From a virus: DNA of 60,934 nt. Made by a program: the position numbers and the translations under genes. Every line of letters starts with the position of its first letter. Positions within the stretch are counted from its first letter, which is position 1. Location of the stretch: positions 1-60,934 of the IMG/VR virus record IMGVR_UViG_3300020385_000001; one strand, 5' to 3'. Positions 17,348 to 51,228 of the stretch are shown piece by piece. Under the pieces are notes generated by a model. The model saw only the letters and a program-made list of their open reading frames with translations. It made no database searches and was not told where the DNA came from.

Positions 17348-20300
17348 ATGTATAAATATAAAGATTACAACTATTCTTTAGAAGAAGTTCAAGATGCTGC
17401 AGATAAAGAAAAATTATCTATAGACGAATATATTAAAGAATTTAATATAGAGAAAACCGATCCCGATCCCGATGAAGAGGGAAAGGAAATCCCTTCACAG
17501 GAGACAGTGGATGCAACTGTGGAGGTAGACGGTACGGCATCCAAATCGGAAAATGGTTCTTCGGACTATACTCAAATTGACCCCACTGAAACAGAATTTA
17601 AAGAAATTACAATTTTTGAAAAAACCAACAAAGATAAAGAGGGTAATACTAGTTCTTTTATTGTAAAAAATCAACCAAAAGAAATTTTAACTGATTTAGG
17701 TAAAAAAAATATTAATGAAAATTATGAAACAGCTTTACAGGATTGGTCTGAATTAACCGCTAATGATCCTCAGGATAAGTCAATAGATTTATACAAAGAA
17801 AAAGCTATATATATTCAAAATGATTTAATAAAAAATAATAAATATTTAAATTTAACAAATAAACAAATATTAAATCAAGTTGATAAATTTTTAAATGCTA
17901 AAGGAAGTGTCCGGGATCAAATAGTAGAAGAGTATAATTTAAATGATCCTAATACAACTGCTGAAACTTTAGAAGAAGCAAACAAAGCTTATAATGATCA
18001 AAGAACCCAAGCAGCAATTCTTTTAGCTGAAAATAATTCTAAATACCAAGCTGTATTAAATGGTATAAAAAATAAAGTTTCCACATCCGTTGGAGGCGAA
18101 TTAAAAGAATTTGAAAAACAAAAACAAAGATCCGAAGTAGAGTTTAAAATTCCTTTTACTGATAAAGTCTTTTCTAAAGGTATAAGCGATAATTCTATTG
18201 TTGAGGGGCTACAAAAAACTTTTTTAAATTTTACTCAATCTTTATATGGAATTGAGTTAATGAGTGCCGATAAAAGTTTTGGCGCTACTGAAAGAGCTAC
18301 TAAAGCCATAACAGCGCTTGAAGAAAAAATAAAAAATAAAGAAATTCGTTTAGATGATAAGGTTGATAGAGACACAAAAATAACCATGCAGGGACGGATT
18401 AAAGATCCTAATATAACCGTTAAAAATGCATTAAAATTTTTAAACTCTTTTTTAGAAGAACGAAAAGAAGAGCAATTTGAAACTATAACCGATATTCAAA
18501 ATATTAATAAAGATTTAAGCTCTTTTACACAAAATAAAATATGGGAAGATGATGGTAGTATAGATCTTACTTTAAAAGAATTAGGGGGGATTGCCGGAGA
18601 ACAATTACCTCAAATTGGATTAGCTTTAGTAGCTGGTGGGATAGGTGTTATGGCGCAAGAAATTGGTGGTAATTATATAACAAATTTAAATTCTATAGCT
18701 CGAAAAAAATTTAATATACCTGAAAATCAAGAACCTACTCCTGAACAATTGATAGATATTATTAATAGTGGCGAAGATCAAGCGGGGGTTGCGTTAGCTA
18801 CTGGGGCAGTTGCGGGGTATTTAGAAAAATTGAGTGCAGGTAAATTACTTAAAGTAGATCTTAAAAAACCTATAGGAGCTATAGTAAGGGGGGAGTTTAA
18901 AACAGCAGCAAAATCTTTATTTAATTCTGGCAAAGCCGTTACTAATGCAACTTTAACAGAAACATTGACAGAAGGATTACAAACGGGGTTAAGTCAATTA
19001 GGAGAATCTGTCGTTACCGATGAAAATAAATTTGATTATAAGGAATTAAGAGAAGCAAGTAGCCAAGGCTTTTTAATGGGCGGTGGATTAACTTCTTTTA
19101 AAATTGGAGTACAACAGACTGCAGTTGAACTTAAACAAACAGCTATGCAGATTGCTGGTGCATTGGGGTCTGAAGGAAGCTATGGGCAATTAGAAAAATC
19201 TTTTAAAGCTTTAGAAACTAAAATAAAATCTGACGGAAGGCTAAGTGAAAATAGTAAAAACAATAGAATAAAAGCTTTAGGGCAAGTTCGAAATACTTTA
19301 AATTCTATTCCTAAAGGATATTCCGCTAATCAAAGAGAAAAAAGTTTAAATTTATTAATTAGAAAACAAGATTTAAACGAACAATTTAAAAATGTAGATT
19401 CCAACTTAATACCTGAAGCGGTAAAAGACCAAATAGAATCAATTGATAATCAATTATCAAGCATAGCAGAATCTGCTTTTATTACCAGAACGGTTGACAT
19501 GGCTATGGAAGAAGGGTTAGGGGATAATATTAAAGTTGCTAATACTAGCGCCCAAGCCGATAAAATAGCAGCAGAAAATAATATGTCTTTAGTTGATTCT
19601 AAGGGAGAAAGAGCAGAAGGCGCTGTTAAAGGCGATGGGTCTACCGTTATAATAGATTTAGAACAGGCCAAAAAAGTAAAAGCATTTAATGTAGCAGGAC
19701 ATGAACTTTTGCATAGAGTTTTATTTAAAACTTTATATAAAGAAGTAGATGGAAAATTAGTGGGTAGTAACGTTGCTAGATCTTTAGGGTTAGAATTAGA
19801 TAAACAATTAAATAAAATAAATCCTGATATACTTAAAAATGAATATTTAAAACAAAGATTTAAATCTTACCAAGACCAAGGTAAATCTATGCAGGCAGAA
19901 GAAAAATTAACAATTTTATCTGATGCTTTGAGATTAGGTGCTGTTAAATTAGAAAACACTGCAATAGAAAAATTTAATGGTTATTTTAGAAGATTGTTTC
20001 AAAATTTAGGATGGAAACAAATTAAATTTAAAGATGGTGAATCTGTAGTAAATTTTATACAAGATTATAATAAATCTTTAGATAAAGGAAGTTTTGGCAA
20101 AGCAATAAAAAAGGGTGCGACAGAAGGTTTTGAAGTTGTTCGAGGAAAAGATGGTATTAAAAATTTAAAAGATGATTACGAAAATATAATTAAAGAATCA
20201 AGATCCGAAAAAGCATCTAATAAAGTTCAAGAGCTATATGAACAAAAAGGTGTTAATGCAGCTGTAGAAATAATAGAACAGTTTAAACCTATAACTAATA

Positions 20301-23300
20301 AAATAGTAGAGCAACGTAAAAATGCGCCTGGTTTTGATAGACAATTACTTACTGATGAAATTGAAACAGGTGCTGGTGGTATACTTGATTTAATACAAGC
20401 ATATGATCCCGCATCTAATGTTCCTTTAGCCGCTTATATTAATAAGTTTCTACCCGTAAGAGCTATCACAGCATCTCGCAGAATATTAGAAGAAGAATTT
20501 GCGGGAGATATTGCAGAAGCACCACAAGTAGCTGCTGAAGCTGCGCCTGAAACAGAGGTTGAAGTTACTGAAACAAAACCTACAGAAAGATTAATTGAAA
20601 CTAAAAATAAATTTCTTTCACCTGAAGGCAGAACAGGTTTTGAAGAAAATGTAGCTAGTAGAATAGACGAGCTTACTCCAGATGAATTTACATTTAAAAA
20701 ATTACCAAATTGGGGTAAAGAAAACTTAGCTAAAGAACTTAATATACCAATTAAAAAGTTTGAAGGATCTTCTAATTTTACTCAAGCGGAGCTAGGAAGA
20801 CTTCTTACTTGGATTGAAACAAACGTAAGTGACATTAGAAGAGCTCTACCGGGCGCTGCAGTATTAGAGGGTGCATCAGTACCTGAAAGCTTAATAGGCA
20901 CAGCCACAGGAGTTCCTAATAATTTATTAAAGAACATTAACTTATACGAAAGATTAGCAAGAGGTACAAAAGACGCAGGGTTAGTTCCTTATAGAAAATT
21001 AAAAGGTATTGATAATAGTTCAATACTTAAAGCGGTAGGTATAATAGACGGTAGGCAAACGGCTGGGCCTAGAGATAAAGCCGCTCAAACGGCTAAAGGT
21101 ATTTTTAACATGATGGCTAAAGTCATGACTAACCAAGAAATACGCAAACAGCTTCAAGCAAAGCCAAGGCCAGATATTACAACAAAAGAAACTGAATCCG
21201 CTAGAGCAGGTGGTATTGAAAGTAGATTATTATTTTCTTTATCTACACCCGCTAAAAAATTATTAAACAAATTTAAAATAGAAGATAAATATAATGGTTT
21301 AGATACTAAAACAGGGATTGATTTATTTATTAAAGATATTGAAAAATATTTAATACCTTATTTTAGCAAAGAAGACTTTAAAGTTTTAAATAAATCTATA
21401 TTAAATTTTAAAACAGAATTTTTTAATCCTAAAGAAGAAAATGTTTCGGCTATAGAACTTCAAAAGTATTTAACAGCTAAACTTGATGCATTAAAACCTA
21501 AATTTAGAGGTATGGCTACTGTTGGAAGAACGCCATATAATAATCCATATAGCTTTGGAAAGACACCACAAGATGTTAAATCTAGATTAAAAAACAACGG
21601 AAAATGGGTAAAAGACTTTAATACTAAACAAAGGGGGGTGTTTAATAAAATGATATTAGACATGAACAAAGCATATAAGGAAACAGACGGGGCTATCGCA
21701 TTACCTTTAGTATATTTATTAGAAAATGGACAAAATGAAAGAAGCAATCCTTTCCCTATGGGTGCTGCTGTATTAGGTTTTTATCCAAATGCGGAATCAT
21801 ACACTTATAAAAACAAAAAAGGTAAAGAAATAACCGGATATTATTTATATGAACATTCTTTTCCTGTGACTCAAGCTAGTAGGTTAATTTTAGAAGGAAT
21901 ATTTTCTAAAAATAAAATTACTTTTAATAATAATTTAAAAAGAGTACAGGATAATTTTTATGTATTAGCATTAACAAAAGAAGATGATGTTAAAATACAA
22001 AAATATGCTAAAGAAAATGAAGGGAACTTAACTAAAGCCTTACCGGAAAATGAAAGATGGTGGGATAGATATGAAAAAGCCGGTATAGATTTAACTAAAT
22101 ATACTAGTTATATTGAGGGATTTGATACGGTACAGGATATTATAAATGCAGCTAAAGCTGAACAACAAGAGCCTAAAGTATTGCCTTTATATAATATTTT
22201 AGGACAATCAAAAATAAAAGCTTCTAAAAGTAATAATAATAAATTACCAAAATCACAACAATTACCATCTTCTTATAATAAAAATAATTTAGTATTAGAT
22301 AAAATGCAAGAGCTTGATAACGAAGCTAACGAAGCTAGAATTAAGTTTAGCAAATCTCAAGATTTAAATGAAGATTTTAATAATATTATTGAAGCTAAAA
22401 CAGGAATTGCAACATATAAAAGGTTCTCACCGGCTAAAGCAGAAGTAAGAGGAGCAAGTAAAGGTAAATTTAATTTCTTTATTCCGCCAAGTGCTGAAGA
22501 CTTTACAGGCTTATTATATAAAACATTGGCTAAAGGTAAAGTAGGTGATACTCAAATGCAATGGTATAAAGATAATTTATTAGATCCTTATGCTAGAGCA
22601 ATGAATGATGTGTCCTCTGCTCGTGTAGCAATGTTTGAAGATTATAAAAAACTAAAAGAAGACCTTAAGGTTATTCCTAAGAATCTTAAAAAGAAAAGTG
22701 TTGATGAATATACCAAAGAGCAGGCTGTAAGAATTTATATATGGAATGAGCAGGGTAATAAAATACCTGGTTTGTTTAAAACGGATCAAAAACAATTAGT
22801 TGATTATGTAAATAACGACCCTGAGCTTAAAGTATTTGCAGACCAGCTTATTGCTATGCAAAAAAATGATGATTATTCTGGCCCTAAAGAAGGCTGGCTT
22901 ACGGGTAGCATTACAACAGATCTATTAGAAAGTGTTAATTCTATAAAAAGAAAAAAATATTTAGAGCAATGGCAAAATAACGTGGACGAAATATTTTCAG
23001 AAGTTAATATGAATAAACTTGAGGCTGCATTTGGAAAGCCTTATAGAAAAGCTTTAGAAAATATTCTGCAAAGAATGAAAACTGGTAGAAATAAGCCATT
23101 TAGGACTGATACATTAGCAGGTAGAGTTACTGACTGGTTAAATAATTCTGTTGGTGCAATTATGTTTTTTAACACAAGGTCAGCTGTATTGCAAACAATA
23201 TCATCAATTAACTTTGTTAACTGGAGCGATAATAATATTTATCAAGCTGGTAAAGCTTTTGCTAATCAACCACAATATTGGAAAGACTTTAAATTTTTGT

Positions 23301-24355
23301 TTAATTCTGACTTTTTAAAAGAAAGACGAGGCGGTTCAAGATTTAATGTTGCAGAGTCTGATATAGCAGATGCCGCTAAAAAAGGTGGGGCTAGAGGAGT
23401 TATAAGTAAAATACTTCAAGCTGGATTTTTACCTACGCAAGCAGCTGATAGTTTTGCCATTGCATCAGGGGGCGCTACTTTTTATAGGAATAGGGTTAAA
23501 TCTTATATTAAAGAAGGCTTGACAGAGACTGAGGCGCAGGAGAAAGCATTTTTAGACTTTAGAGAAATAGCCGAAGAATCACAACAATCATCAAGACCTG
23601 ATAGAATTAGTGCCCAACAAGCGGGCGCATTAGGGCGCGTTGTGTTAGCTTTTGCAAACACACCAGCGCAATATGCTAGATTAACTAAAAAAGCCGCTAG
23701 TGATCTTATAAACAGACGTGGTGACGCTAAAACAAACTTTTCTAAGCTACTATATTATGGATTTGTACAAAATTTAATATTTAACATGTTACAAAAAGCA
23801 ACATTTTTACTTGCTTTTGGAGATGAAGACGAAGATGAAAAGAAAAAACAAAAAGCATATTTAAGTACTATAAACGGCATGGCTGACGGATTGCTTAGGG
23901 GCATGGGTATACAAGGTGCTGCAATTTCTACCATAAAAAATGTTTTAATAAAAATTAGCGAAGATGCCACGGATCCTGTTTCAGATGTATTAGATTTTTC
24001 CCCTCCAATATCATCAAAATATGATAAGCTACAAAGGGCTTATAGAATTTACAAATGGAATAAAGAAGAAATAAAAGAAAAAGGATTTAGTTTAGATAGT
24101 CCCGCATATGAGGCTGCAGCAAATATTATATCAGCAACTGTTAATGTGCCTTTAGATAGAGTTGTAAAAAAGGTTAATAATGTAGTTGATGCAACTCAAG
24201 AAAACATAACACCCCTTGAAAGAGCAATGCTTGCTGCCGGATGGAGCGAATGGGAATTAGGAATACAAAAACCTAAACCTAAAAAGAAAAAGAAAACTAG
24301 AAGTTCTGGAAGAGGAACTAGCAGAAGTAATAGTAGATCATCAAATAGAAGATAA
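17348..24355 (+). CDS. Giant internal-virion / ejection protein (2335 aa) with a zincin HExxH motif and a poly-basic tail
   Basis: 7-kb uninterrupted ORF. HELLH lies at 19700-19714 (aa 785-789). The C-terminus is KPKPKKKKKTRSSGRGTSRSNSRSSNRR. Its position is equivalent to T7 gp16. Confidence 0.55.
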   Translation: MYKYKDYNYSLEEVQDAADKEKLSIDEYIKEFNIEKTDPDPDEEGKEIPSQETVDATVEVDGTASKSENGSSDYTQIDPTETEFKEITIFEKTNKDKEGNTSSFIVKNQPKEILTDLGKKNINENYETALQDWSELTANDPQDKSIDLYKEKAIYIQNDLIKNNKYLNLTNKQILNQVDKFLNAKGSVRDQIVEEYNLNDPNTTAETLEEANKAYNDQRTQAAILLAENNSKYQAVLNGIKNKVSTSVGGELKEFEKQKQRSEVEFKIPFTDKVFSKGISDNSIVEGLQKTFLNFTQSLYGIELMSADKSFGATERATKAITALEEKIKNKEIRLDDKVDRDTKITMQGRIKDPNITVKNALKFLNSFLEERKEEQFETITDIQNINKDLSSFTQNKIWEDDGSIDLTLKELGGIAGEQLPQIGLALVAGGIGVMAQEIGGNYITNLNSIARKKFNIPENQEPTPEQLIDIINSGEDQAGVALATGAVAGYLEKLSAGKLLKVDLKKPIGAIVRGEFKTAAKSLFNSGKAVTNATLTETLTEGLQTGLSQLGESVVTDENKFDYKELREASSQGFLMGGGLTSFKIGVQQTAVELKQTAMQIAGALGSEGSYGQLEKSFKALETKIKSDGRLSENSKNNRIKALGQVRNTLNSIPKGYSANQREKSLNLLIRKQDLNEQFKNVDSNLIPEAVKDQIESIDNQLSSIAESAFITRTVDMAMEEGLGDNIKVANTSAQADKIAAENNMSLVDSKGERAEGAVKGDGSTVIIDLEQAKKVKAFNVAGHELLHRVLFKTLYKEVDGKLVGSNVARSLGLELDKQLNKINPDILKNEYLKQRFKSYQDQGKSMQAEEKLTILSDALRLGAVKLENTAIEKFNGYFRRLFQNLGWKQIKFKDGESVVNFIQDYNKSLDKGSFGKAIKKGATEGFEVVRGKDGIKNLKDDYENIIKESRSEKASNKVQELYEQKGVNAAVEIIEQFKPITNKIVEQRKNAPGFDRQLLTDEIETGAGGILDLIQAYDPASNVPLAAYINKFLPVRAITASRRILEEEFAGDIAEAPQVAAEAAPETEVEVTETKPTERLIETKNKFLSPEGRTGFEENVASRIDELTPDEFTFKKLPNWGKENLAKELNIPIKKFEGSSNFTQAELGRLLTWIETNVSDIRRALPGAAVLEGASVPESLIGTATGVPNNLLKNINLYERLARGTKDAGLVPYRKLKGIDNSSILKAVGIIDGRQTAGPRDKAAQTAKGIFNMMAKVMTNQEIRKQLQAKPRPDITTKETESARAGGIESRLLFSLSTPAKKLLNKFKIEDKYNGLDTKTGIDLFIKDIEKYLIPYFSKEDFKVLNKSILNFKTEFFNPKEENVSAIELQKYLTAKLDALKPKFRGMATVGRTPYNNPYSFGKTPQDVKSRLKNNGKWVKDFNTKQRGVFNKMILDMNKAYKETDGAIALPLVYLLENGQNERSNPFPMGAAVLGFYPNAESYTYKNKKGKEITGYYLYEHSFPVTQASRLILEGIFSKNKITFNNNLKRVQDNFYVLALTKEDDVKIQKYAKENEGNLTKALPENERWWDRYEKAGIDLTKYTSYIEGFDTVQDIINAAKAEQQEPKVLPLYNILGQSKIKASKSNNNKLPKSQQLPSSYNKNNLVLDKMQELDNEANEARIKFSKSQDLNEDFNNIIEAKTGIATYKRFSPAKAEVRGASKGKFNFFIPPSAEDFTGLLYKTLAKGKVGDTQMQWYKDNLLDPYARAMNDVSSARVAMFEDYKKLKEDLKVIPKNLKKKSVDEYTKEQAVRIYIWNEQGNKIPGLFKTDQKQLVDYVNNDPELKVFADQLIAMQKNDDYSGPKEGWLTGSITTDLLESVNSIKRKKYLEQWQNNVDEIFSEVNMNKLEAAFGKPYRKALENILQRMKTGRNKPFRTDTLAGRVTDWLNNSVGAIMFFNTRSAVLQTISSINFVNWSDNNIYQAGKAFANQPQYWKDFKFLFNSDFLKERRGGSRFNVAESDIADAAKKGGARGVISKILQAGFLPTQAADSFAIASGGATFYRNRVKSYIKEGLTETEAQEKAFLDFREIAEESQQSSRPDRISAQQAGALGRVVLAFANTPAQYARLTKKAASDLINRRGDAKTNFSKLLYYGFVQNLIFNMLQKATFLLAFGDEDEDEKKKQKAYLSTINGMADGLLRGMGIQGAAISTIKNVLIKISEDATDPVSDVLDFSPPISSKYDKLQRAYRIYKWNKEEIKEKGFSLDSPAYEAAANIISATVNVPLDRVVKKVNNVVDATQENITPLERAMLAAGWSEWELGIQKPKPKKKKKTRSSGRGTSRSNSRSSNRR

Positions 24356-25331: not shown

Positions 25332-25678
25332 AATATTTTAAAGACAAGGAAGACTTTAAAGGCAACATGGATAAAATGGATCCTAAGCTGTTAACCATGC
25401 TTGATGAGCTTCGTGAAGAATACGGCCAACCTATTATTCTTAATTCCTCATATAGGTCTGCTTCTCATCCTGTAGAAATTGTAAAAAGCAAACCAGGCGA
25501 GCACACATATGGTGCTGCTGTAGATATTAAATGCGCTGGCGGTGAAAATACATTTAATTTAGTAAGTGCAGCTATTAAAGTTGGATTCAGACGCATAGGA
25601 ATATCGCGTAAAAGTAATTTTGTACACGTTGGAATTGGTTATCCTAACGCTCCCGAAACAACTATTTGGACATATTAA
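25328..25678 (+). CDS. Zinc peptidase M15 family, putative endolysin
   Basis: SSYRS, GEHTYGAAVD (H-x6-D) and NFVHVG match the VanY/M15 zinc-ligand pattern. Confidence 0.65.
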   Translation: MKYFKDKEDFKGNMDKMDPKLLTMLDELREEYGQPIILNSSYRSASHPVEIVKSKPGEHTYGAAVDIKCAGGENTFNLVSAAIKVGFRRIGISRKSNFVHVGIGYPNAPETTIWTY

Positions 25679-27417
25679 CCGTCACAACTTAAACAATCAG
25701 GATCCATAGCGGCTGCAGCTATATCGCCTCTTAATACAGATTCTGTTCTAGTATAATATAAAGTTTTAATTCCTCTTTTCCAAGCTTCAATATGAACTTG
25801 ATTTAGCCATCGTGGTGATGCTTCCGATGGAAATGCTAAATTTAAACTTACCGACTGATCAACATAATCTTGTCTTATTCCAGCTTGTCTAATTAATTCT
25901 AATTGATTTATTTCTTTGAATGTTTTAAATACATTCTTTACTGATTCTCCTTCTTCTTGGTTAAGTCTTCCTCCGTGATCGTAATACCATCCGTCAAGTT
26001 GTTTAATTCCTTGAACGGATCCACCATCTTCCAAAATTTTATCCCAAGTTTCTTTAGTGTCGATTCCAACTTTTCTTAATACTTTTTTAAGTTCTTTATT
26101 TTTACGTATAAATGTACCTTTTGCAGATTGTTCTGTAAATACATTAGCAGCCCAAGGTTCAATTCCCGGCGATACATTACCTGCTAATTTACTATTAGAT
26201 ACCGTAGGCGCAATAGCCCTAAGGTGAGTATTCCTAAAACCGGTACCTACACACCACAAAGGCTCGCCGTATGTTTCAGCTAATGCTCTTGATGCTCTTT
26301 CAGTCTCAATTTTTATTTTTGAAAAAATTTCTCGCGTTTTGAATTGCGCTAATAAACTTTCGAAACCAATTCCGTTTTTCTGTAACAGGCTGTGCCACCC
26401 AAGGACACCAAGTCCAAGAGCCCTTCCTTTTTCCGCACTGCGTACAGAGTTCTCGAATCCCTTCATATTCTTTGCCTTCTGGATAAATTCTTCTAGCACA
26501 CCGTCCAGGAACCATGTGGCGTCGTATATCAGATTGGTATTCTTCCATTCATCATATTTATCTAAGTTAACTGAAGATAAGCAACAAACAAAGCTATGGC
26601 TTTCATCCGTATGCAATACTATTTCGCTACAGATATTAGTCATATGTACTTTTAAACTGTTCTTTTTGTATGCTTCTGGATTATTTTTATTTGTGTTTCC
26701 CTTAAAAAGAATATAAGGTTCGCCAGTAGCTTTACGCTTTTGAAGGAGTTTGGACCATTTCCTCCGTGCTTCTTTATCTCCCGCTTCAAGTCTTCGCATA
26801 AACTTGTCACCGACCACAGCACACTGGTGGAGGTTGAGTGATTGTCTATTGACATCTCCTTTAGGTTCTCGGATTTCAACCCATTCATCAAAATCGGGAT
26901 GTTCAATATTGATATTAACTGAAGCAGCTCCTCGTCTGACAGATCCTTGATTAGTGGCAAGTATTGTTGAATCGTATATCTTGCAAAACGGCACCACTCC
27001 ATCACTTGTTCCATTGTTTGTTATTCTAGCCCCGGCAGGACGAATCATATTAATTCCGATACCAACACCCCCGCCGTGTTTTGCTAGTAACATCATTTCT
27101 AAATTTTTAGTACCAATATCATGAACGCTATCCGCTACATCAATACCAAAGCAACTAATAGGTAATCCGCGATCTGAGCCAGTATTAGATAGTACAGGTG
27201 AAGCCAAACACAGCCAGCCTTTCCATATATAATCAAAAAACTTTTCGGCTAGTTCTGGTTTGTATAAACGTTTTGCTATAGTTTTAGCAACCCGTTCGTA
27301 TGCGTCTTTAGGAGATTCTCCATTAATCAAGTAGCCACCTGTAATTGTTTTTTTGTAAACATCGGTTTCTCCCCAAACAGGATAATCTTCACCTCTTTTC
27401 CAATCGCTATTCCACAT
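25675..27417 (-). CDS. nrdA: Ribonucleotide reductase class I alpha subunit (short form, no ATP-cone)
   Basis: The active-site loop NICSEI, ISCFG, and the C-terminal CLSCDG redox pair are present. The beta-subunit gene lies upstream on the same strand. Confidence 0.85.
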   Translation of the reverse strand: MWNSDWKRGEDYPVWGETDVYKKTITGGYLINGESPKDAYERVAKTIAKRLYKPELAEKFFDYIWKGWLCLASPVLSNTGSDRGLPISCFGIDVADSVHDIGTKNLEMMLLAKHGGGVGIGINMIRPAGARITNNGTSDGVVPFCKIYDSTILATNQGSVRRGAASVNINIEHPDFDEWVEIREPKGDVNRQSLNLHQCAVVGDKFMRRLEAGDKEARRKWSKLLQKRKATGEPYILFKGNTNKNNPEAYKKNSLKVHMTNICSEIVLHTDESHSFVCCLSSVNLDKYDEWKNTNLIYDATWFLDGVLEEFIQKAKNMKGFENSVRSAEKGRALGLGVLGWHSLLQKNGIGFESLLAQFKTREIFSKIKIETERASRALAETYGEPLWCVGTGFRNTHLRAIAPTVSNSKLAGNVSPGIEPWAANVFTEQSAKGTFIRKNKELKKVLRKVGIDTKETWDKILEDGGSVQGIKQLDGWYYDHGGRLNQEEGESVKNVFKTFKEINQLELIRQAGIRQDYVDQSVSLNLAFPSEASPRWLNQVHIEAWKRGIKTLYYTRTESVLRGDIAAAAMDPDCLSCDG

Positions 27418-27628: not shown

Positions 27629-27879
27629 ATATTATATAAATAAATTAAATAACCAATAGTTACATTTAAATTAACTATCACTAAGTTCCATTGTTTTGCC
27701 ACAAATACTTGGGGTAAAGATAATATACCCCCGGTTATATAGGTAACAGCTCCAATATTATCAGGTAATAAATAAGGCGAAATCATTATAAAAGCAGCAC
27801 CCATATAACCTAATCTATTAGATAATCTTTCTAATGGTGTTAATTTTCTTTCTTTTACTAATGCTTTTAGCTTTACCAT
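27625..27879 (-). CDS. Small integral membrane protein (84 aa, 2-3 TM)
   Basis: Hydrophobic stretches LGYMGAAFIMISPYLL, AVTYITGGILSLPQVFV and LVIVNLNVTIGYLIYLY. Confidence 0.5.
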   Translation of the reverse strand: MVKLKALVKERKLTPLERLSNRLGYMGAAFIMISPYLLPDNIGAVTYITGGILSLPQVFVAKQWNLVIVNLNVTIGYLIYLYNI

Positions 27880-28841
27880 ATATCTTCAAAATCTTCTCCT
27901 TCGTTAGCTTTTGAGTAATCAGTTGGACGAACAGCAAAAAAATCAGTATGAGTATGCCCCCCGGTAAGATGGTAGAACCAGTCAAGACTGCTTGCTGCTT
28001 TTTTGTCAAATTTAAAGTGTTCCCCACTGTACGCGTATCCAAGTTCGTGTAACTTTTCATTAAGTCTTTTTCTAATAAATTGTTTGAGATCGTTGGCTTT
28101 AAGGTTTTCAATGTCCCCAAGCTCGAACATTTTATCAATATATTTTTCTTCTGCATCTAATATTGTTTTAGCTGCATCAAATATTTCAGGTTTACATTTA
28201 TTTAGCAGCTTAGGATCTTCTTCACACATATGCCTAAATAATTGGCACCCCATTTTACTATGTAACGATTCATCTCTTACTGACCACTTCATTTGTTGGC
28301 CAATACCTTTTAATAAATTTCTTAATTGAAAAGAATATAATACAGCAAAAGCAGAATAAAGACTAACTCCTTCAGCAAAAGCAGAAAAAATAGCCAGGGA
28401 CTTTGCGATACCAACCAACTCATTTCCTTCATAAGCGACGAGGTTGTCAAATCTTTCCATAGTTGCTTCATCCTGTAAAAAAGCTTCAAAATTTTCAAGA
28501 CCAAGTGTTTCATTCAAATAACTATATGCTACTGCGTGTATTGTTTCTTGGCTACCAAACATCATAGCCATTTGTTGTATTTCGTGTTTAGGAAACCACG
28601 CTACAACTTTTTGTGTCCAATAATCTGATACCGCACACTCTGTTTGGGCAAAACCTAATAGTATATTTCCTACTAAATTTTTTTCTTCTACAGTAAGTTT
28701 TTCATTCCAATCTTTTACATCGCCCGACATGGGTATTTCTGTATGTAACCAAAATGCCTGCGCTTGTTTTAGCCAACCTTCTGTGTAATATTCTGGAAAT
28801 TCAAAAGGTTTATAAGGTACTCTTAAATCAAATAATCCCAT
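27873..28841 (-). CDS. nrdB: Ribonucleotide reductase class I beta subunit
   Basis: Di-iron ligand motifs are present: SQETIHAVAYSY (ExxH), FAEGVSLY, VRDESLH (ExxH). Confidence 0.85.
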   Translation of the reverse strand: MGLFDLRVPYKPFEFPEYYTEGWLKQAQAFWLHTEIPMSGDVKDWNEKLTVEEKNLVGNILLGFAQTECAVSDYWTQKVVAWFPKHEIQQMAMMFGSQETIHAVAYSYLNETLGLENFEAFLQDEATMERFDNLVAYEGNELVGIAKSLAIFSAFAEGVSLYSAFAVLYSFQLRNLLKGIGQQMKWSVRDESLHSKMGCQLFRHMCEEDPKLLNKCKPEIFDAAKTILDAEEKYIDKMFELGDIENLKANDLKQFIRKRLNEKLHELGYAYSGEHFKFDKKAASSLDWFYHLTGGHTHTDFFAVRPTDYSKANEGEDFEDIW

Positions 28842-28844
28842 TTA

Positions 28845-29006
28845 TTATTTATCTACTATTAAACAAATATCTACGAACGGTAAATATACAACATGCTCAT
28901 TATAATTTTCATTAATATATGATCTTATTCCTAACAATATACCAGGATACAAACCAATACTTAATTCCCAGCCTTTACCTTCCTTGTCCTCTATATTTTT
29001 TGGCAT
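28845..29006 (-). CDS. Small hypothetical protein (53 aa; internal start of the 89-aa track ORF)
   Basis: MPKNIEDKEGKGWELSIGLYPGILLGIR... The upstream part of the track ORF overlaps a more protein-like frame. Confidence 0.35.
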   Translation of the reverse strand: MPKNIEDKEGKGWELSIGLYPGILLGIRSYINENYNEHVVYLPFVDICLIVDK

Positions 29007-29109
29007 AATTTTTACTTTTTTTAAGTTTAGACGTTTTGCTTTTTGCGTGCACATTTGGACGCTTAACTTTATTTTTTTTGGTGTAATTATTAGATATAAC
29101 TTTAGCCAT
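28975..29109 (-). CDS. Very basic 44-aa peptide, below cutoff
   Basis: Manual translation gives MAKVISNNYTKKNKVKRPNVHAKSKTSKLKKSKNYAKKYRGQGR. It overlaps both neighbours. Confidence 0.3.
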   Translation of the reverse strand: MAKVISNNYTKKNKVKRPNVHAKSKTSKLKKSKNYAKKYRGQGR

Positions 29110-29275
29110 AACATTTTATATTGTGTGTTTCTTGTATTTCAACTAATTCTTTATATAAAAGTCTTCCTCTTGTTTCTATACTCCATTTTATAAACTTATC
29201 TACTTGCCTGTCTGCATATTTAATGCGAGCTACTTTTTTAGCTTTTCTAGGATCAATTCTACCGTTCTGTCGCAT
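29102..29275 (-). CDS. Small hypothetical protein (57 aa), below cutoff
   Basis: Manual translation gives MRQNGRIDPRKAKKVARIKYADRQVDKFIKWSIETRGRLLYKELVEIQETHNIKCYG. It starts inside the 3' end of the resolvase gene. Confidence 0.35.
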   Translation of the reverse strand: MRQNGRIDPRKAKKVARIKYADRQVDKFIKWSIETRGRLLYKELVEIQETHNIKCYG

Positions 29276-29694
29276 TCTTTTTGATTCTGTGGTTTATATA
29301 GTGTATAATTAGGGAATTGGTTCATTACAAGTTGCTTAAATAGCTTCCAGCGCATTGGGAATGATTCATTAGCCCTGCCCTTTGTTTCAATTATAAAATT
29401 GTCTCCTATAAAATCTGGAGTATATTTAATTGGAAGTATTCTTTTGCAGCCTCGGTTTTTATAATCACCTTTGCCATTTGATTGTCTTTCATATACTTCG
29501 TTTTCAAAATGAAACCCATTTAATAAAACAAAAGTTTCCCCTTCATATTTTGATCGTATTTTAGCTTTTTTTAAAGCCATATACATATATCTTTCTAAGC
29601 CTGATGCAAAGTTAATATTATCGTACGATACTTTTTTAGAAACAACTGGACCACGTTTTCTTTTTTTATATGGTCGTCGTTTAATCATCACCAA
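29230..29694 (-). CDS. T7 endonuclease I-like Holliday-junction resolvase
   Basis: FASGLE...(KYEGE)...YTPDFIGDNFIIETKG parallels T7 gp3 FRSGLE...YTPDFLLPNGIFVETKG (catalytic E, D, E-x-K). Confidence 0.7.
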   Translation of the reverse strand: MVMIKRRPYKKRKRGPVVSKKVSYDNINFASGLERYMYMALKKAKIRSKYEGETFVLLNGFHFENEVYERQSNGKGDYKNRGCKRILPIKYTPDFIGDNFIIETKGRANESFPMRWKLFKQLVMNQFPNYTLYKPQNQKECDRTVELILEKLKK

Positions 29695-29941
29695 ATGTTT
29701 TATTTATATTTTTTAACATTACTTCTTGAAGTTCTTCAGTGGTGTTTTCTTTAAGCTTTTGAAGATATAATACAGCATCCATTAATTCTTCTTGCAAGTG
29801 ATTCATCCAAATAAACATATCAGATGGATCTTTATCAAGTGTTATTTTATATTTTTCAAAGCCTACATCAGATCTATCTACAAATTTATCTACTACTCGC
29901 TCTACTACTGGATCTCTAAATTTTATTTCTTTCTTATTCAT
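29681..29941 (-). CDS. Small MazG-like NTP pyrophosphohydrolase-fold protein (86 aa)
   Basis: The ...GFEKY...W.NHLQEELMDAVLYLQKL pattern is typical of short all-alpha NTP-PPases. Confidence 0.5.
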   Translation of the reverse strand: MNKKEIKFRDPVVERVVDKFVDRSDVGFEKYKITLDKDPSDMFIWMNHLQEELMDAVLYLQKLKENTTEELQEVMLKNINKTFGDD

Positions 29942-30710
29942 CTTTTACAAATGTTCCGTTAATCATTCTACCAGTTCTACTAGATATTTCATCATAAGCA
30001 GACTGAATACAAGTTTCAATATCGGTACCGACAAGATGGGCAAGATTAGTAAGAACAACAATGCTATCACCAATAGCATCAATAATATCTTCTTTATTAT
30101 TTTTAAGTAAGGCTTGTGATAATTCTCCAGATTCTTCATATAATTTAATTAGCTGTGTTTTAGTATCTCCTTTTTCATACAAACCTCTTTCTTCAGCCCA
30201 ACTTCTAATATTGTTAAATATTTCAATTGTTTCAACAATAGGCGTAAGATTGTTTTCAGGATTTAAAAAAGCTTCATAATAAGCTTTGTTATAAATATAA
30301 CTGCGCTTGTCATTGTACATAGATTTTTTGCAGTTTAATAAAATCCAATTAATAGTTTCAGGATCTAATTTAAATTCTCCATGCGAAGTTTCCCAAGAAA
30401 AATCTAAATGATCTCTAAGCCAATTATTAAGCTGTAGCTTAGGAACTGGAAATGTTGTGGTTTGTTCGGTAACGTTTATTTTCATTTTATTTAATTTTTG
30501 ATTACATAAATCTTTATACTTTTGCCTGTCAACTTTATAACCATAAGACTTTTGAAGTTCTATTTCCCGGTCAGATATATAATTTATATCATCACTAGAA
30601 TCAAGAACTTCATATTCATCTAACTGATAACCCTGGACAGCCGTTACACGCTTATTAAGATTACGTGTAACCCCTATTTTTTTACCCGGTACGTGATAAA
30701 TAAAATACAT
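29934..30710 (-). CDS. MazG-type NTP pyrophosphohydrolase with N-terminal GIY-YIG-like segment
   Basis: The C-terminus has LYEESGELSQAL...DAIGDSIVVLTNLA (EExGE / DxxGD MazG metal motifs). The N-terminus YFIYHVPGKKIGVTRNLNKRV...REIELQ resembles GIY-YIG. Confidence 0.6.
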   Translation of the reverse strand: MYFIYHVPGKKIGVTRNLNKRVTAVQGYQLDEYEVLDSSDDINYISDREIELQKSYGYKVDRQKYKDLCNQKLNKMKINVTEQTTTFPVPKLQLNNWLRDHLDFSWETSHGEFKLDPETINWILLNCKKSMYNDKRSYIYNKAYYEAFLNPENNLTPIVETIEIFNNIRSWAEERGLYEKGDTKTQLIKLYEESGELSQALLKNNKEDIIDAIGDSIVVLTNLAHLVGTDIETCIQSAYDEISSRTGRMINGTFVKDE

Positions 30711-30713
30711 ATT

Positions 30714-31526
30714 TTATGTTGCTAAAGGTGCTTTTATAACTGTTGCAGGATTGTAATCTATTAAAGTAATGTCTTCATGCTCAGGTATATCAACCTTGTG
30801 TGTTAAAGATAACCCTTTTTTTAATTTTACAGTAGGCAATTTACTATCAGCCCTATTTAAATATTGTGTAGCTTGTTTAATATGATTACTATATAAATGA
30901 CAATCTCCTAAAAAACAAACAAGTTCTCCCAACTCATAGCCTGAACCTTTAGCTAACATAAGTAATAATAAGCCATACATTGCTAAATCATAAGGTAAAC
31001 CTAAAAATACATCTACTGATCTTTGTGACCAAGCTAAACTTAATTTATTATCATTTATATATACTTGAAAGCCATAATGACAAGGAGGAAGTGCCATATC
31101 ATCCAATTCAACGGGATTCCATAAGCTTGCCATAATGCGCCGCGAGCTCGGGTTTTGTTTAATTTGCTCGAGAATATACTTAAGCTGGTCAACACCATTA
31201 AAGTTGCGAAGCTGCTCGCCATAAACAGGACCAAGAGTGTTATCAGTCCTACCTGATTTTGTATAATTATCATCCCAATAAGAAATGCCGTGATGGCGTA
31301 AGTAATACATGTCAGTACGACCCTGTAGTATCCATAATAATTCCGTAATTGCATGATTAAAATATATTTTTTTAGCGGTTAATAATGGGAATCCATGAGC
31401 CATATCATGAGTAAGCATCCGTCCAAAGATAGCCTGTGTTCCTGTGTTAGTTCGATCTTCTTTAGGTAATCCTTCGTAGAGTATATCTGATAATAATCTT
31501 CTGTATTCATTTTGTACGTTTTTCAT
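30714..31526 (-). CDS. Thymidylate-synthase-family enzyme with Asp at the dUMP-specifying Asn: predicted dCMP methyltransferase/hydroxymethylase
   Basis: Gapless match to the ThyA active-site blocks DRTNTGT, GPVYG, SSRRI, PPCH, QRSVDVFLGLPYDLAMY, DCHLYSNH and KAPLAT. Asp180 (GAT, complement of 30987-30989) replaces E. coli Asn177. Confidence 0.65.
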   Translation of the reverse strand: MKNVQNEYRRLLSDILYEGLPKEDRTNTGTQAIFGRMLTHDMAHGFPLLTAKKIYFNHAITELLWILQGRTDMYYLRHHGISYWDDNYTKSGRTDNTLGPVYGEQLRNFNGVDQLKYILEQIKQNPSSRRIMASLWNPVELDDMALPPCHYGFQVYINDNKLSLAWSQRSVDVFLGLPYDLAMYGLLLLMLAKGSGYELGELVCFLGDCHLYSNHIKQATQYLNRADSKLPTVKLKKGLSLTHKVDIPEHEDITLIDYNPATVIKAPLAT

Positions 31527-31800
31527 AATAATATTTTCTTGCTTTTTTTATTGCCGGCCATATTCCTTTATCATCATAAGATATAGGTGAAATATGTGCC
31601 TTCTCACCTTTTTTATACAACCCTAATCTAACTTCTACATACCAAGAATCTGGGAATAATCCCTTTGTAGCAGGTTTAGGAGATATACGATAATTATTAT
31701 TAATACAATAATTAAAATGCAATTGTTCCTCATTATTTAAATTTTCATGATACTTATTTAACCCTTTATAATTTTTAGGTTTTTTTAACCCACTTCCCAT
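31507..31800 (-). CDS. Hypothetical protein (97 aa)
   Basis: ORF overlapping both neighbours in an operon-like arrangement. Confidence 0.5.
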   Translation of the reverse strand: MGSGLKKPKNYKGLNKYHENLNNEEQLHFNYCINNNYRISPKPATKGLFPDSWYVEVRLGLYKKGEKAHISPISYDDKGIWPAIKKARKYYYEKRTK

Positions 31801-33509
31801 GGCATTTCTTCTAAATGATTTGTTTCAGGATATATAGGTATAAAACAACCTGATTTATATTCCCATCTAAAATGTGCTTCTGCACCATTTTCGCCTAAGT
31901 TTTGGAATTTAACTTTGAGCACTTTGGCTTTAACAGTTTTATTATCATAATCGCGGTGAATGAGTAAACCATGATAAGATGCATCATACCACTCGCCACC
32001 GCCTTTAATATTATACATAGTTGGTTCTTCAATTTTGCCATCTTTATCTTTATACATTTTAGTAGGGTGAGCTACAACTATAACTAATACATCATATTTT
32101 TTAGCAAATATTTCAATCTTAGTAAGGTATTCCATTGTATACCTATTTACATCTTCTGTCTTGCAATTTACGTCCCTTATTTTATTAAATGGATCAATAA
32201 CTAAACATTTAATTCCTTTTCTTTTAACAAGTTCAGCTCCTTTCTTTAAAACTGATTCTAAAGTATAGCGCTCCATATCTATAAAAAAGAAATTTTCATT
32301 AACATGCTTAGCTATTGATTGCCATTTTGCTCCACCAATGTCGGACTTTTGTGGCATGTCTTGCCACACTTTTCGCATTAGTTTGTGAGCATGTAAAAAT
32401 GTTGGTGCATTTTCAGGTGATGCAAAAGCTGTTTTCCATTGATAATTTTGATTATATCCTACGACCATTTGGTCAACAAAATCAGACTTACCAGAAGAAG
32501 GTATACCAGTAACAGTAATAAACTGGCCGGTATACGTTGAAAATATTTCATCAAAATTTTGTAAACCAACTTGATAGCCTTTTTTAAATCCATTTTTAAC
32601 AAAATCTGTAATTTCTCCTTCAATGTCATTGAACGTCGTGACGTTTTCGAGCGGTACGGCCTTCGCCTTTTGTACAAGCTTTGATAATCTTTCAGTTCCA
32701 TATTTTAATAAATATTCGTTAGCGTCTTTGCAATCATCGAAGTCTATAATAAAACAAACCTCTGCACCAAGACGTCTAATTAATTCTTGTTGCAAGGCTT
32801 GTCCTGCTTCGTCTTTATCAACTGCTAAAATTATTTTTTCTTTATCATCAAAATAATCTATACAGTTATCTAAGTAATCTAAATTATTATTATTTATTGT
32901 AGCGCCGTTTGGGACAGAGACCACGTTTCGTATTCCAGCTTCATGAAAAGATAAAACATCCATCTCGCCTTCCACAATAATACAGCTGTTATACCCAACA
33001 ATGCTGTTAATATTATAAAATACTTTTTCGGCTCCTTTAAATAATTTAAAGTTTTTTCTACCATCTCTATATTTTATGTTAATTAAATCATTACCAATAA
33101 AATAATTAAATTTAATAGTATTTTCTTCTTTACCTGTTTGTGGCATCCATTCAGGGCCTTCAGATATTTTTAAATTTTGTAACGTATTTTTATTAATACC
33201 ACGCAGTTTAAACCAATCTTCAACCTTAGTGTTTTTAACAGGAGAAATATTTTCATTTACTGGTCGCACAAATTCCTTTGTGCTATCACCTTTTCTTTTA
33301 TAAGTATGTAACTGAAATGTAGTATTGCAGTTGTGACAAGTACCAAGCCCGGTTTGCCAATCATACGATGCACACTTTAATTTTTGTTTAGATGACTTTC
33401 TATCAGATGAACACAGGGGACAAATCCCCTGCGTCTTTCCTTCTTCAAGATCATATTGGTTGAAGCTTTCTATTGCGTAACCATTTATTTCTTGAGTATT
33501 TATTTGCAT
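31785..33509 (-). CDS. Bifunctional primase-helicase (T7 gp4-like)
   Basis: Cys4 zinc finger CPLCSS...CHNCN; TOPRIM motifs VEGEMDVLS and AVDKDEAGQ; Walker A GIPSSGKS; Walker B CLVIDPF. Confidence 0.8.
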   Translation of the reverse strand: MQINTQEINGYAIESFNQYDLEEGKTQGICPLCSSDRKSSKQKLKCASYDWQTGLGTCHNCNTTFQLHTYKRKGDSTKEFVRPVNENISPVKNTKVEDWFKLRGINKNTLQNLKISEGPEWMPQTGKEENTIKFNYFIGNDLINIKYRDGRKNFKLFKGAEKVFYNINSIVGYNSCIIVEGEMDVLSFHEAGIRNVVSVPNGATINNNNLDYLDNCIDYFDDKEKIILAVDKDEAGQALQQELIRRLGAEVCFIIDFDDCKDANEYLLKYGTERLSKLVQKAKAVPLENVTTFNDIEGEITDFVKNGFKKGYQVGLQNFDEIFSTYTGQFITVTGIPSSGKSDFVDQMVVGYNQNYQWKTAFASPENAPTFLHAHKLMRKVWQDMPQKSDIGGAKWQSIAKHVNENFFFIDMERYTLESVLKKGAELVKRKGIKCLVIDPFNKIRDVNCKTEDVNRYTMEYLTKIEIFAKKYDVLVIVVAHPTKMYKDKDGKIEEPTMYNIKGGGEWYDASYHGLLIHRDYDNKTVKAKVLKVKFQNLGENGAEAHFRWEYKSGCFIPIYPETNHLEEMPWEVG

Positions 33510-35224: not shown

Positions 35225-35977
35225 TTACAGATAATCAAGCACTTGCGAGCTATCTACGTTGTCAATTAGTTTTTGTATCGCTGCCTTTTTTATTTCAGAT
35301 ATCCTTACGTAAGAGCTAGGCCCTTCAATACCTATAATCTTTGCAATATCATTGGCAGAATGCTTATCACAATCTAATCCGTAAGATAAGCGTAAAACTT
35401 CATACTCTTTTGGATTAAGATTCTTTTTTAATATACTTTTTAAATACATATTAAGCATACCTAAATTATATGGTTCAGATCTATCAGGCACTTGATCAAA
35501 ATAACTTTCTTCATTATCAGCCTGTTCATCTATACTTAAAAATATACTATTAAAAAATATTTCAACTATTTTTTTATCTTGGGGGTTTTGGCGCATTTCA
35601 TTTAATCTATGCTCTGGAATCCGTATATGTCCTCTTGTTATATCAATTGATCTTCTAATTGCACCTTTAATTCTTTTAGAAAGAAATGATTTAATTGTTT
35701 TTTCAGGGTCTTCTGATTCAACTATTTTGCTCATTTCTATTTTATCAACCGCTGCTATAAGACCTTTACTGCCTTCTTGTATAAGGTCAGTTATATCTAA
35801 TATGCCTGATGCTTGTTGTGTGGTTGCAAATTTATGTGCCATATTTTCTACAAGTGGTAAAAACTTTATGATCAGCTCATCTCTAGTGTAAAGATCATAC
35901 GTTCGTTTATTTTCTGGCATACTGTTTTGTAAATCAGTTTTATACCGAATGTAATTCTTTACATTATATTTTTTCAT
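35225..35977 (-). CDS. Sigma-70 family RNA polymerase sigma factor
   Basis: Region 2 is DLIQEGSKGLIAAVDKIE. The region 4 HTH is EYEVLRLSYGLD...SANDIAKIIGI...VRISEIKKAAIQKL. Confidence 0.8.
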   Translation of the reverse strand: MKKYNVKNYIRYKTDLQNSMPENKRTYDLYTRDELIIKFLPLVENMAHKFATTQQASGILDITDLIQEGSKGLIAAVDKIEMSKIVESEDPEKTIKSFLSKRIKGAIRRSIDITRGHIRIPEHRLNEMRQNPQDKKIVEIFFNSIFLSIDEQADNEESYFDQVPDRSEPYNLGMLNMYLKSILKKNLNPKEYEVLRLSYGLDCDKHSANDIAKIIGIEGPSSYVRISEIKKAAIQKLIDNVDSSQVLDYL

Positions 35978-47784: not shown

Positions 47785-48828
47785 ATGGCAATAACTAAAG
47801 TAAGAGCTTCTGGTATAGACCTTAGTGGCAATACAACTTTTTTAGCTTTGCCAAAAGGAACTACCGCTCAAAGACCTTCTTCTCCAGTATCTGGAATGAT
47901 TCGCGAAAATACAACTCTAAACCAATTAGAGTTTTACAATGGCACAGACTGGCGTGTAATGAAACAAGCTGTGCCAGATATAGAATACCTTGTATTAGCC
48001 GGGGGCGGTGGAGGCGGTGGCTGGGGTGGCGGCGGCGGAGCCGGCGGATTACTTACTAGTTCATTTGTGCCTGTATCGGGAACAACTTATACAGTAGCTA
48101 TTGGAACTGGCGGAACTGCAGGCGGATATAGCAGCAGTTATTATTCTGGAGGACAGGGTAATAATTCATCTATTTCAGGATCAGGTCTAACAACTATAAC
48201 CGCTATAGGCGGTGGGGGTGGCGGACGATATGATGCTAATGCAGGTGACGGTTGGCCTGGAGGCTCGGGTGGGGGGGCATCTTCAAGACATCCAAGTTAT
48301 AGCGGAGGAATCGGTGGCGCGGGAACATCAGGCCAAGGAAACGATGGCGGAGCCACTGCCTCCAGTGGAAGTTTTTATCCAGCAGGCGGCGGCGGCGGTG
48401 GGGCAGGAGCTGCGGGTGCCGGCGGAAGTGGCAATCAAGGAGGCACAGGAGGAATCGGAATACAATCTAATATTACAGGTAGTAATAAATATTATGCTGG
48501 AGGTGGTGCAGGAATAACTACTCAATCTAATACTGTATCAGCCGGAGGCAATGGCGGTGGAGGAGCGGGATCTCGGTATAATACAGCGTCTGGATCGATG
48601 AGTGAAATTGTTGCTATTTCTGGCACAAACGGATTAGGTGGTGGAGGCGGCGGTGCAAGTTATCCTAGTAGTGCGGGCGCTGGTGGAAATGGAACCGTAA
48701 TAATTAAATTACCTACTTCTTTTACAATAAGCGTTACAGGATCACCAACATTAAATCCCGATGGAGCAGTGTCTGGATTTAATATTTATGAATTTGGTAC
48801 AGGGGGTGGAACATTTACAATAAGCTAA
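47785..48828 (+). CDS. Glycine-rich tail fibre/adhesin paralog A (347 aa)
   Basis: MAITKV...LPKGTTAQRPSSPVSGMIRENTTLNQLEFYNGTDW, then YLVLAGGGGGGG... Gly-rich body, ending GGNGTVIIKLP. Confidence 0.65.
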   Translation: MAITKVRASGIDLSGNTTFLALPKGTTAQRPSSPVSGMIRENTTLNQLEFYNGTDWRVMKQAVPDIEYLVLAGGGGGGGWGGGGGAGGLLTSSFVPVSGTTYTVAIGTGGTAGGYSSSYYSGGQGNNSSISGSGLTTITAIGGGGGGRYDANAGDGWPGGSGGGASSRHPSYSGGIGGAGTSGQGNDGGATASSGSFYPAGGGGGGAGAAGAGGSGNQGGTGGIGIQSNITGSNKYYAGGGAGITTQSNTVSAGGNGGGGAGSRYNTASGSMSEIVAISGTNGLGGGGGGASYPSSAGAGGNGTVIIKLPTSFTISVTGSPTLNPDGAVSGFNIYEFGTGGGTFTIS

Positions 48829-51218: not shown

Positions 51219-51228
51219 AAAATATTAA

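Follow-up and report, generated by a model that had tools for sequence, protein, structure and literature searches.

A ThyA homolog with aspartate at the dUMP/dCMP specificity position in a marine phage genome: a predicted dCMP methyltransferase

Members of the thymidylate synthase (TS) superfamily differ in substrate according to a single active-site residue: Asn177 (E. coli numbering) goes with deoxyuridylate (dUMP) and Asp177 with deoxycytidylate (dCMP), and Asp177 is statistically tied to cytosine-modified virome contigs (PMC8670742). We analysed a TS homolog with aspartate at this position, here called ThyA-D, which is encoded on the minus strand at 30714–31526 of a viral DNA of 60,934 nucleotides (IMG/VR record IMGVR_UViG_3300020385_000001; the window, by which we mean this whole stretch). 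A first-pass annotation of the window had read the gene as a dCMP C5-methylase or hydroxymethylase and had proposed that the phage DNA carries modified cytosine.

The closest mechanistic analogue of ThyA-D is an engineered enzyme. The single mutants N177D of E. coli ThyA and N229D of L. casei TS methylate dCMP (Hardy & Nalivaika 1992; Liu & Santi 1992, as cited in PMC8670742), and according to the literature cited there, the substitution alone suffices for this activity and strongly reduces that towards dUMP. Both mutants (N229D: PDB 1njc) are catalytically poor. Like them, ThyA-D keeps the canonical scaffold, the C-terminal tail and the catalytic and folate residues while exchanging Asn for Asp, and it resembles a form of these proteins that arose naturally and became fixed in evolution. 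It differs from them in that it is natural and phage-borne, is 42–44% identical to bacterial TS and has Asn/Asp in place of Trp83.

The deoxycytidylate methyltransferase of Xanthomonas phage Xp12 (MT664984, QNN97214.1), a phage whose DNA is fully substituted with 5-methylcytosine (5mC), has Asp177 and forms the product that we predict for ThyA-D, 5-methyl-dCMP (5mdCMP). Both genomes encode a class I ribonucleotide reductase (RNR). Nevertheless, the two enzymes are only 28% identical and fall into separate clusters of a crude neighbour-joining (NJ) tree, and the Xp12 enzyme has Asn143, Pro147 and Leu165 and no KAPVAI-type tail, so that none of the marks of the Xp12-type clade (close identity, Pro147, Leu165 and a truncated tail) is found in ThyA-D. 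Other Asp177 enzymes come from MetaGPA analyses of viromes, where they are encoded on uncultured phage contigs, including some from coastal seawater, often next to a PRA-PH/MazG-type gene (PMC8670742; bioRxiv 10.1101/2024.12.05.627091). Five of seven metagenomic Asp-type TSs, as well as the Xp12 TS, made 5-methyldeoxycytidine (5mdC) in vivo (bioRxiv 10.1101/2024.12.05.627091). The MetaGPA sets were chosen for an adjacent deaminase gene and often include PolA, whereas the window genome is without both; the modified contigs tend to have a residue other than His at position 147, where ThyA-D has His.

Two further groups of phage enzymes share the specificity aspartate. T4 gp42, like ThyA-D a TS superfamily member with the catalytic Cys, differs in having Asp145 at the 143 position and a Thr that follows the Cys; it is without a tail, and its products are 5-hydroxymethyl-dCMP (5hm-dCMP) and tetrahydrofolate (THF). 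RB69 gp48 and DLP3 gp80 are TS homologs with Asp177 that act on dCMP, as predicted for ThyA-D, but they combine D169N and Glu143 with a flavin cofactor (PMC13326640) and the absence of a tail, none of which applies to ThyA-D.

The specificity switch, phage dCMP methylases (Xp12, PaMx74), the link of Asp177 to modified viromes including a coastal sample, and the in vivo validation are thus already published. What we add is modest: a large conserved marine clade with no relative of at least 60% identity among 50,697 deposited phage genomes, which is of the canonical ThyA type (His147, full tail), is 28% identical to the Xp12 enzyme and occurs in a small genome without accessory enzymes.

ThyA-D carries aspartate at the Asn177 position

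The open reading frame (ORF) is real and its product has 270 amino acids. It matches Pfam family PF00303 (Thymidylat_synt) with E=3.1e-85 and 286 bits (cut-off 24.3), the match spanning residues 7–269 and profile positions 2–265 of 266, and NCBIfam TIGR03284 with 266 bits (cut-off 108). The best PDB sequence match is 6auj, the TS of Elizabethkingia anophelis (Flavobacteriales; E=4e-71), and solved bacterial TSs in general share the 42–44% identity given above. An AlphaFold2 model built from 41 clade members (pLDDT 92.9) has the TS fold and superimposes in Foldseek on the E. coli, Elizabethkingia and mammalian enzymes with TM 0.87–0.93 and an rmsd of ~2 Å; its structural matches include the L. 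casei N229D–dCMP complex (PDB 1njc). ORF, family profiles and fold therefore agree with the first-pass annotation, and ThyA-D is a member of the ThyA superfamily PF00303 with a full-length TS fold.

All motifs named in that annotation are present (DRTNTGT, GPVYG, SSRRI, PPCH, QRSVD, DCHLYSNH and a C-terminal KAPLAT). Its statement that the protein aligns with E. coli ThyA without gaps holds for the active-site blocks but not for the regions outside them, where ThyA-D shows indels relative to TS at about residues 89–96 and 109–110. The catalytic Cys149 (codon TGT, 31080–31082, minus strand; E. coli Cys146) is followed by His150 (His147), and both are invariant in an alignment of 41 clade sequences, as are the phosphate-binding arginines R25, R129, R130 and R169 (E. 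coli R21, R126', R127' and R166). In E. coli numbering, R21, E58, W80, Y94, R126, R127, L143, C146, H147, Q165, R166, S167, D169, H207 and Y209 are unchanged in ThyA-D, and the same catalytic and folate residues hold throughout the clade.

Asp180 (codon GAT, 30987–30989, minus strand) is the equivalent of E. coli Asn177, L. casei Asn229 and T4 gp42 Asp179. In HMMER alignments to solved TS structures, QRSVDVFLGLPYDLAMY pairs with QRSADVFLGVPFNIASY without gaps and with maximum posterior, placing Asp180 in the Asn177 column. Aligned by MAFFT L-INS-i to E. coli ThyA, Xp12 TS, T4 gp42 and RB69 gp48, it falls in the same column, in which the three dCMP-using phage enzymes likewise have Asp. The assignment made in the first-pass annotation thus stands up to alignment with both ThyA and T4 gp42, and the codon check agrees with it. 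Asn177, by which canonical dUMP-specific TSs (EC 2.1.1.45) are recognised, is replaced by Asp180 in ThyA-D.

The substitution is conserved. Among the 120 closest homologs (60–96% identity, from marine and Tara metagenomes), 119 have Asp at position 177 and one has Tyr, and Asp180 is invariant across the 41-sequence clade alignment. Five loci retain the GAT codon although the neighbouring Leu and Ala codons differ synonymously. By comparison, the 150 nearest cluster representatives at 50% identity comprise 134 with Asn and 15 with Asp. Given the near-complete retention among homologs, the invariance and the kept codon, set against an outgroup that is mostly Asn, Asp180 is no sporadic change and goes beyond chance. 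In a crude NJ tree the ThyA-D clade is monophyletic and nested among Asn-type ThyA proteins, apart from the cluster of the Xp12 enzyme, while the other Asp-type representatives are scattered. This scatter suggests several independent Asn-to-Asp switches, although the tree is rough, and ThyA-D is probably derived from a canonical, Bacteroidota-like ThyA by such a switch at position 177.

The only other departure of ThyA-D from E. coli ThyA in the folate pocket concerns Trp83, which corresponds to Asn at residue 87 and is Asn or Asp throughout the clade. We considered this change as a second marker of dCMP specificity and rejected it, since Asn/Asp also occurs in Asn177 representatives.

Predicted reaction and competing explanations

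Published work relates three further features to the reaction product. At position 143, Leu keeps water out and goes with a methyl product, whereas Asp or Glu activates a substrate water and goes with a hydroxymethyl product (PMC6400193, PMC13326640); the D145N mutant of T4 dCMP hydroxymethylase forms no 5hm-dCMP (PMC6400193). Position 169 is Asp in folate-dependent enzymes and Asn in flavin-dependent 5-hydroxy-dCMP synthases (PMC13326640). The C-terminal tail of TS (I258, A260, V262, A263) closes the folate site for reductive methylation, and T4 dCMP hydroxymethylase has no such tail (PMC6400193).

ThyA-D has Leu146 at the 143 position (codon 31089–31091, minus strand), which is invariant in the 41-sequence alignment and is Leu in all 15 clade members tabulated. 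Asp172, at the 169 position, is likewise invariant in the clade. The folate-sealing tail IKAPLAT (30717–30737, minus strand) is equivalent to E. coli I258–I264 (IKAPVAI) and is absent from T4 gp42, RB69 gp48 and Xp12 TS in the MAFFT alignment. By the published residue rules, ThyA-D is most likely a reductive dCMP methyltransferase (5-methyl-dCMP synthase) with 5-methyl-dCMP and dihydrofolate (DHF) as its predicted products; Leu146, Asp172 and the retained tail are the reasons for favouring 5-methyl-dCMP over 5hm-dCMP or 5-hydroxy-dCMP, and His147, Tyr94 and Glu58 (E. coli numbering) also point to reductive methylation of dCMP. These residues bear out the first-pass view of a dCMP-directed C5 transferase for which methylation is at least as likely as hydroxymethylation.

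In the mechanism that we propose, Cys149 would attack dCMP at C6 and Asp180 would read and protonate the N3/N4 face of cytosine, taking the place of an Asn that reads the O4/N3 face of uracil. The methylene group of methylenetetrahydrofolate would then be moved to C5. Since Leu146 and the C-terminal tail would seal the site, the exocyclic methylene would be reduced by the THF hydride rather than trapped by water, yielding 5-methyl-dCMP and DHF and no hydroxymethyl product. RNR would provide deoxynucleotides, and the adjacent MazG-like pyrophosphatase would convert dCTP into dCMP, both feeding ThyA-D and emptying the competing dCTP pool. Host kinases would raise 5mdCMP to 5mdCTP, and the host replisome, recruited by the phage primase-helicase, would incorporate it. 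Virion DNA would then contain 5mC for much or all of its cytosine and be shielded against restriction.

We hold with moderate confidence that a dCMP methyltransferase, a MazG-like dCTPase and RNR together let the phage build 5mC-containing DNA by way of host kinases and the host replisome. The argument is built on homology, residue identities, conservation and synteny; from these we infer the substrate and product of ThyA-D, the specificity of the MazG-like protein, how the modified nucleotide is phosphorylated and polymerised, and that the DNA contains modified cytosine. Only tentatively do we take it further, namely that an abundant lineage of marine podophages of the Flavobacteriia type may replace cytosine by 5mC with two genes (a canonical-type ThyA with N177D and a T5orf172-MazG dCTPase) and no phage kinase, deaminase, dihydrofolate reductase (DHFR) or polymerase, host kinases and replisome doing the rest, and that its switch may be independent of the Xp12 type.

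A number of points weigh against 5mC-containing DNA made in this way. The proven methylase of Xp12 has Asn143, Pro147 and Leu165 and no tail, and the Leu143 and tail criteria therefore look sufficient but not necessary; the Leu143 rule itself only "appears to correlate" with the product. Of the residues that tell modified from unmodified virome contigs, the one at position 147 ranks second (PMC8670742), and ThyA-D keeps His147, where Xp12 has Pro and T4 has Thr. Two of the seven tested Asp-type TSs yielded no 5mdC (bioRxiv 10.1101/2024.12.05.627091). In Xp12, a gene of the dCMP deaminase family and a DHFR gene adjoin the TS gene, whereas the window genome has neither and also has no DNA polymerase gene.

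This last point concerns the whole phage. The window carries a 77-bp exact direct repeat at its ends (1–77 and 60858–60934) and is therefore a complete, circularly assembled genome of ~60.86 kb. We searched it by means of the precomputed Pfam annotation, Pfam and PHROG scans of ~50 ORFs, motif regular expressions and tblastn, for which the queries were ThyX, the RB69 kinase and three Xp12 proteins (deaminase, DHFR and HAD hydrolase). Genome-wide, we found no DNA polymerase, deoxynucleoside monophosphate (dNMP) kinase, cytidine/dCMP/dCTP deaminase or DHFR, enzymes with which characterised phages with 5mC or 5-hydroxymethylcytosine are usually equipped, nor any glycosyltransferase, nucleoside diphosphate (NDP)-sugar gene, ThyX or second ThyA. 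Neither an HAE...PCxxC motif nor a homolog of the Xp12 deaminase occurs in the genome, and ThyA-D is its only TS-like gene. The absence of a recognisable dNMP kinase, glycosyltransferase and DNA polymerase, already pointed out in the first-pass annotation, thus extends over the complete genome. A further point against the proposal is that in published assays non-canonical dNMPs entered E. coli DNA efficiently only when a promiscuous phage kinase was co-expressed (bioRxiv 10.1101/2024.12.05.627091; PMC13326640). Since no phage kinase or polymerase was found, it must be host enzymes, or else small ORFs that escaped recognition, that bring 5mdCMP into DNA. The model is at its weakest here, and at its most interesting too. 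Depletion of palindromes and restriction sites in the genome is only mild, with z no lower than −3.8 and CTAG, CATG and GGCC lowest, and carries no information on modification.

The same dCMP to 5-methyl-dCMP chemistry would serve a different end if a host dCMP/dCTP deaminase turned the product into dTMP/dTTP. Combined with the action of the MazG-like dCTPase, such a conversion would move the nucleotide balance from C towards T and make ThyA-D part of a dUMP-independent thymidylate route or a device for pool manipulation. Xp12-type phages deaminate part of their 5mdCTP to dTTP and thereby bypass a conventional TS (bioRxiv 10.1101/2024.12.05.627091); the window genome is AT-rich (34.2% GC), has no conventional TS and encodes neither a kinase nor a polymerase that would be reserved for a modified nucleotide. 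However, motif and Xp12 homolog searches show that it encodes no deaminase, whereas the known 5mC-selective deaminases are phage-encoded and lie beside the TS gene (bioRxiv 10.1101/2024.12.05.627091). Hosts make dTMP from dUMP and a relative of the phage uses ThyX, next to which a two-step detour seems costly. We give the deamination route, as either a thymidylate supply or a pool device, a small but real chance. That ThyA-D is mainly or dually an ordinary dUMP-dependent TS, with Asp180 merely tolerated, and raises the dTMP supply beside RNR seems unlikely to us, even though the protein is a textbook ThyA except at position 177, with 42–44% identity to bacterial TS and with His147 and the catalytic residues kept, databases label clade members thymidylate synthase, and two of seven Asp-type TSs elsewhere gave no 5mdC. 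A single transition (GAT to AAT) would restore Asn, and the neighbouring codons have diverged, yet Asp is found in 119 of 120 homologs; in the literature cited in PMC8670742, N177D/N229D alone creates dCMP methylases with strongly reduced dUMP activity (PDB 1njc); and Asp177 goes with cytosine-modified contigs (PMC8670742).

The remaining alternatives accept dCMP as the substrate and differ in the product. If ThyA-D were a dCMP hydroxymethylase like T4 gp42, the phage would have 5-hydroxymethylcytosine DNA that might be decorated further. The two proteins share the aspartate at the specificity position, and phages with 5-hydroxymethylcytosine are the best-known users of TS homologs. We consider it very unlikely, as ThyA-D has Leu146 rather than Asp or Glu three residues before the Cys, the position at which D145N ends 5hm-dCMP formation by the T4 enzyme (PMC6400193); it also retains the folate-sealing tail that gp42 is without, and no glycosyltransferase or tailoring enzyme was found genome-wide. 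A flavin-dependent 5-hydroxy-dCMP synthase, as described for RB69 gp48 and DLP3 gp80, has Asp177 in common with ThyA-D, but the Asn169 of gp48 is replaced by Asp172, which is invariant in the clade, position 143 is Leu and not Glu, and no NDP-sugar or glycosyltransferase genes were found; we regard this assignment as extremely improbable.

Genes adjoining ThyA-D

ThyA-D lies in a block of minus-strand genes in the order primase-helicase, 97-aa ORF, ThyA-D, 258-aa ORF, 86-aa ORF, DUF1064 nuclease-like ORF, NrdB and NrdA. This order is kept in related loci L004–L006, whose ThyA-D proteins are only 65–82% identical to that of the window. The RNR genes noted in the first-pass annotation are indeed downstream on the same strand: the class I small subunit NrdB at 27873–28841 (PF00268) and the large subunit NrdA at 25675–27417 (PF00317, PF02867), both in conserved synteny.

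The same annotation placed two MazG-type proteins immediately downstream of ThyA-D, of which one can be retained. The 258-aa ORF (29934–30710, minus strand) starts 3 bp past the ThyA-D stop and encodes a fusion of an N-terminal T5orf172-like domain with a C-terminal MazG-like nucleoside triphosphate pyrophosphohydrolase. It matches phrog_1992 (E=2e-34), phrog_715 (E=8e-31) and PDB 1vmg (E=4e-5); the Pfam MazG match (22.1 bits, cut-off 22) and the PRA-PH match are at threshold. The acidic motifs EESGEL and DAIGD are invariant, and orthologs are annotated T5orf172 and PRA-PH. The T5orf172-MazG fusion is an unusual architecture, and each of the four related loci that we examined has it beside ThyA-D. 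On cytosine-modified virome contigs, PRA-PH-type domains rank in the top five neighbours of deaminase/TS genes (bioRxiv 10.1101/2024.12.05.627091), which makes it plausible that the 258-aa protein is a dCTPase that would supply dCMP and remove competing dCTP. T4 pairs gp42 with the dCTPase gp56, and the MazG-like neighbour of ThyA-D might be paired with it likewise.

The 86-aa ORF (29681–29941, minus strand), the other supposed MazG, is a helical protein conserved in the ThyA-D/MazG/RNR block with an invariant NHLQEELMDA motif. We find no support for it as a second MazG: searches of Pfam, PHROGs and PDB gave no MazG match, its hhalign probability with the MazG fusion is 0.4%, and its only PHROG matches are to families of unknown function (phrog_17558, E=1e-10). 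Its AlphaFold2 model is of low confidence (pLDDT 65).

On the other side of ThyA-D, the 97-aa ORF (31507–31800, minus strand) overlaps the ThyA-D start by 20 nt and could be translationally coupled to it. It has orthologs of 89–97 aa in L004–L006 and no family match in Pfam or PHROGs. The Toprim/DnaB-type primase-helicase (31785–33509, minus strand), recognised by tblastn to phage primase-helicases, is the sole replisome enzyme recognised in the genome. Upstream of the replication and nucleotide block, a 250-aa ORF (35225–35977, minus strand) has an ortholog in L005 with a weak Sigma70_r4 match, which suggests a phage sigma-like transcription factor.

The phage, its relatives and the meaning of the switch

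Contigs of 60,976 bp with an identical ThyA-D recur in many ENA samples, and the exact protein is present in 54 assembly-collection blocks, 34 of them with contigs of 50–200 kb. The portal and structural proteins are 44–51% identical to those of podophages of Flavobacterium, Cellulophaga, Maribacter and Tenacibaculum, and because of this relatedness the host is probably a marine member of the Flavobacteriia. No close cultured relative carrying ThyA-D was found: all 4085 phage records with a TS match among the 50,697 deposited genomes are below 60% identity, and the best of them (44% identity) are annotated as ordinary thymidylate synthases. A megablast search with the window DNA gave no match. 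The sole match in genome contigs is CAXHFF010000034.1, a 7.8-kb contig with a 77%-identical ThyA-D that is binned in a metagenome-assembled genome of an uncultured Acidimicrobiaceae; most likely this is viral DNA that was assigned to a bacterial genome by mistake.

The Flavobacterium elemo phages and Cellulophaga phage phi10:1, which are nearest by portal or primase, have no TS at the syntenic place. The freshwater relative MW202828.1 (60.85 kb, portal 51% identical) encodes a flavin-dependent ThyX (28958–29632) rather than ThyA-D. ThyA-D is therefore a lineage-specific acquisition and not the standard thymidylate supply of the group. Set side by side, MW202828.1 and the window genome offer a natural comparison by which consequences of the switch can be judged.

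Several other genes of the phage lie on the plus strand. A GroEL-type chaperonin (53205–54758; phrog_5725, E=4e-131) and a 201-aa GroES-like co-chaperonin (58353–58958; phrog_13932, E=5e-25) are encoded, and MW202828.1 likewise has a groEL/groES pair. A giant ORF of 2335 aa (17348–24355), which has no Pfam or PHROG match and measures 2210–2357 aa in related contigs, adjoins lysis-like genes (Peptidase_M15_3, PAP2) and may be an ejected or virion-associated protein. Three consecutive ORFs at 47785–52365 (347, 796 and 378 aa) match the same part of phrog_2295 (~positions 595–887) and look like paralogous tail-fibre or receptor-binding modules. The ORF list of the window contains no large terminase. 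In MW202828.1 the terminase sits directly upstream of the portal, and by analogy the terminase here probably spans the window boundary (ends at ~59.9–60.9 kb and 73–531), in which case the 152-aa ORF at 73–531 would probably be its C-terminal part.

As a natural, selected version of N177D, ThyA-D could be a better-behaved dCMP methylase for the production of 5mdCTP and 5mC DNA. If our proposal is correct, a recurrent and widely assembled lineage of marine phages has 5mC-substituted DNA, with consequences for methylation calling and library bias in marine viromics as well as for restriction evasion in the ecology of Flavobacteriia and their phages. Cytosine replacement would then require many fewer phage genes than Xp12 or T4 devote to it, host kinases and the host polymerase doing the rest.

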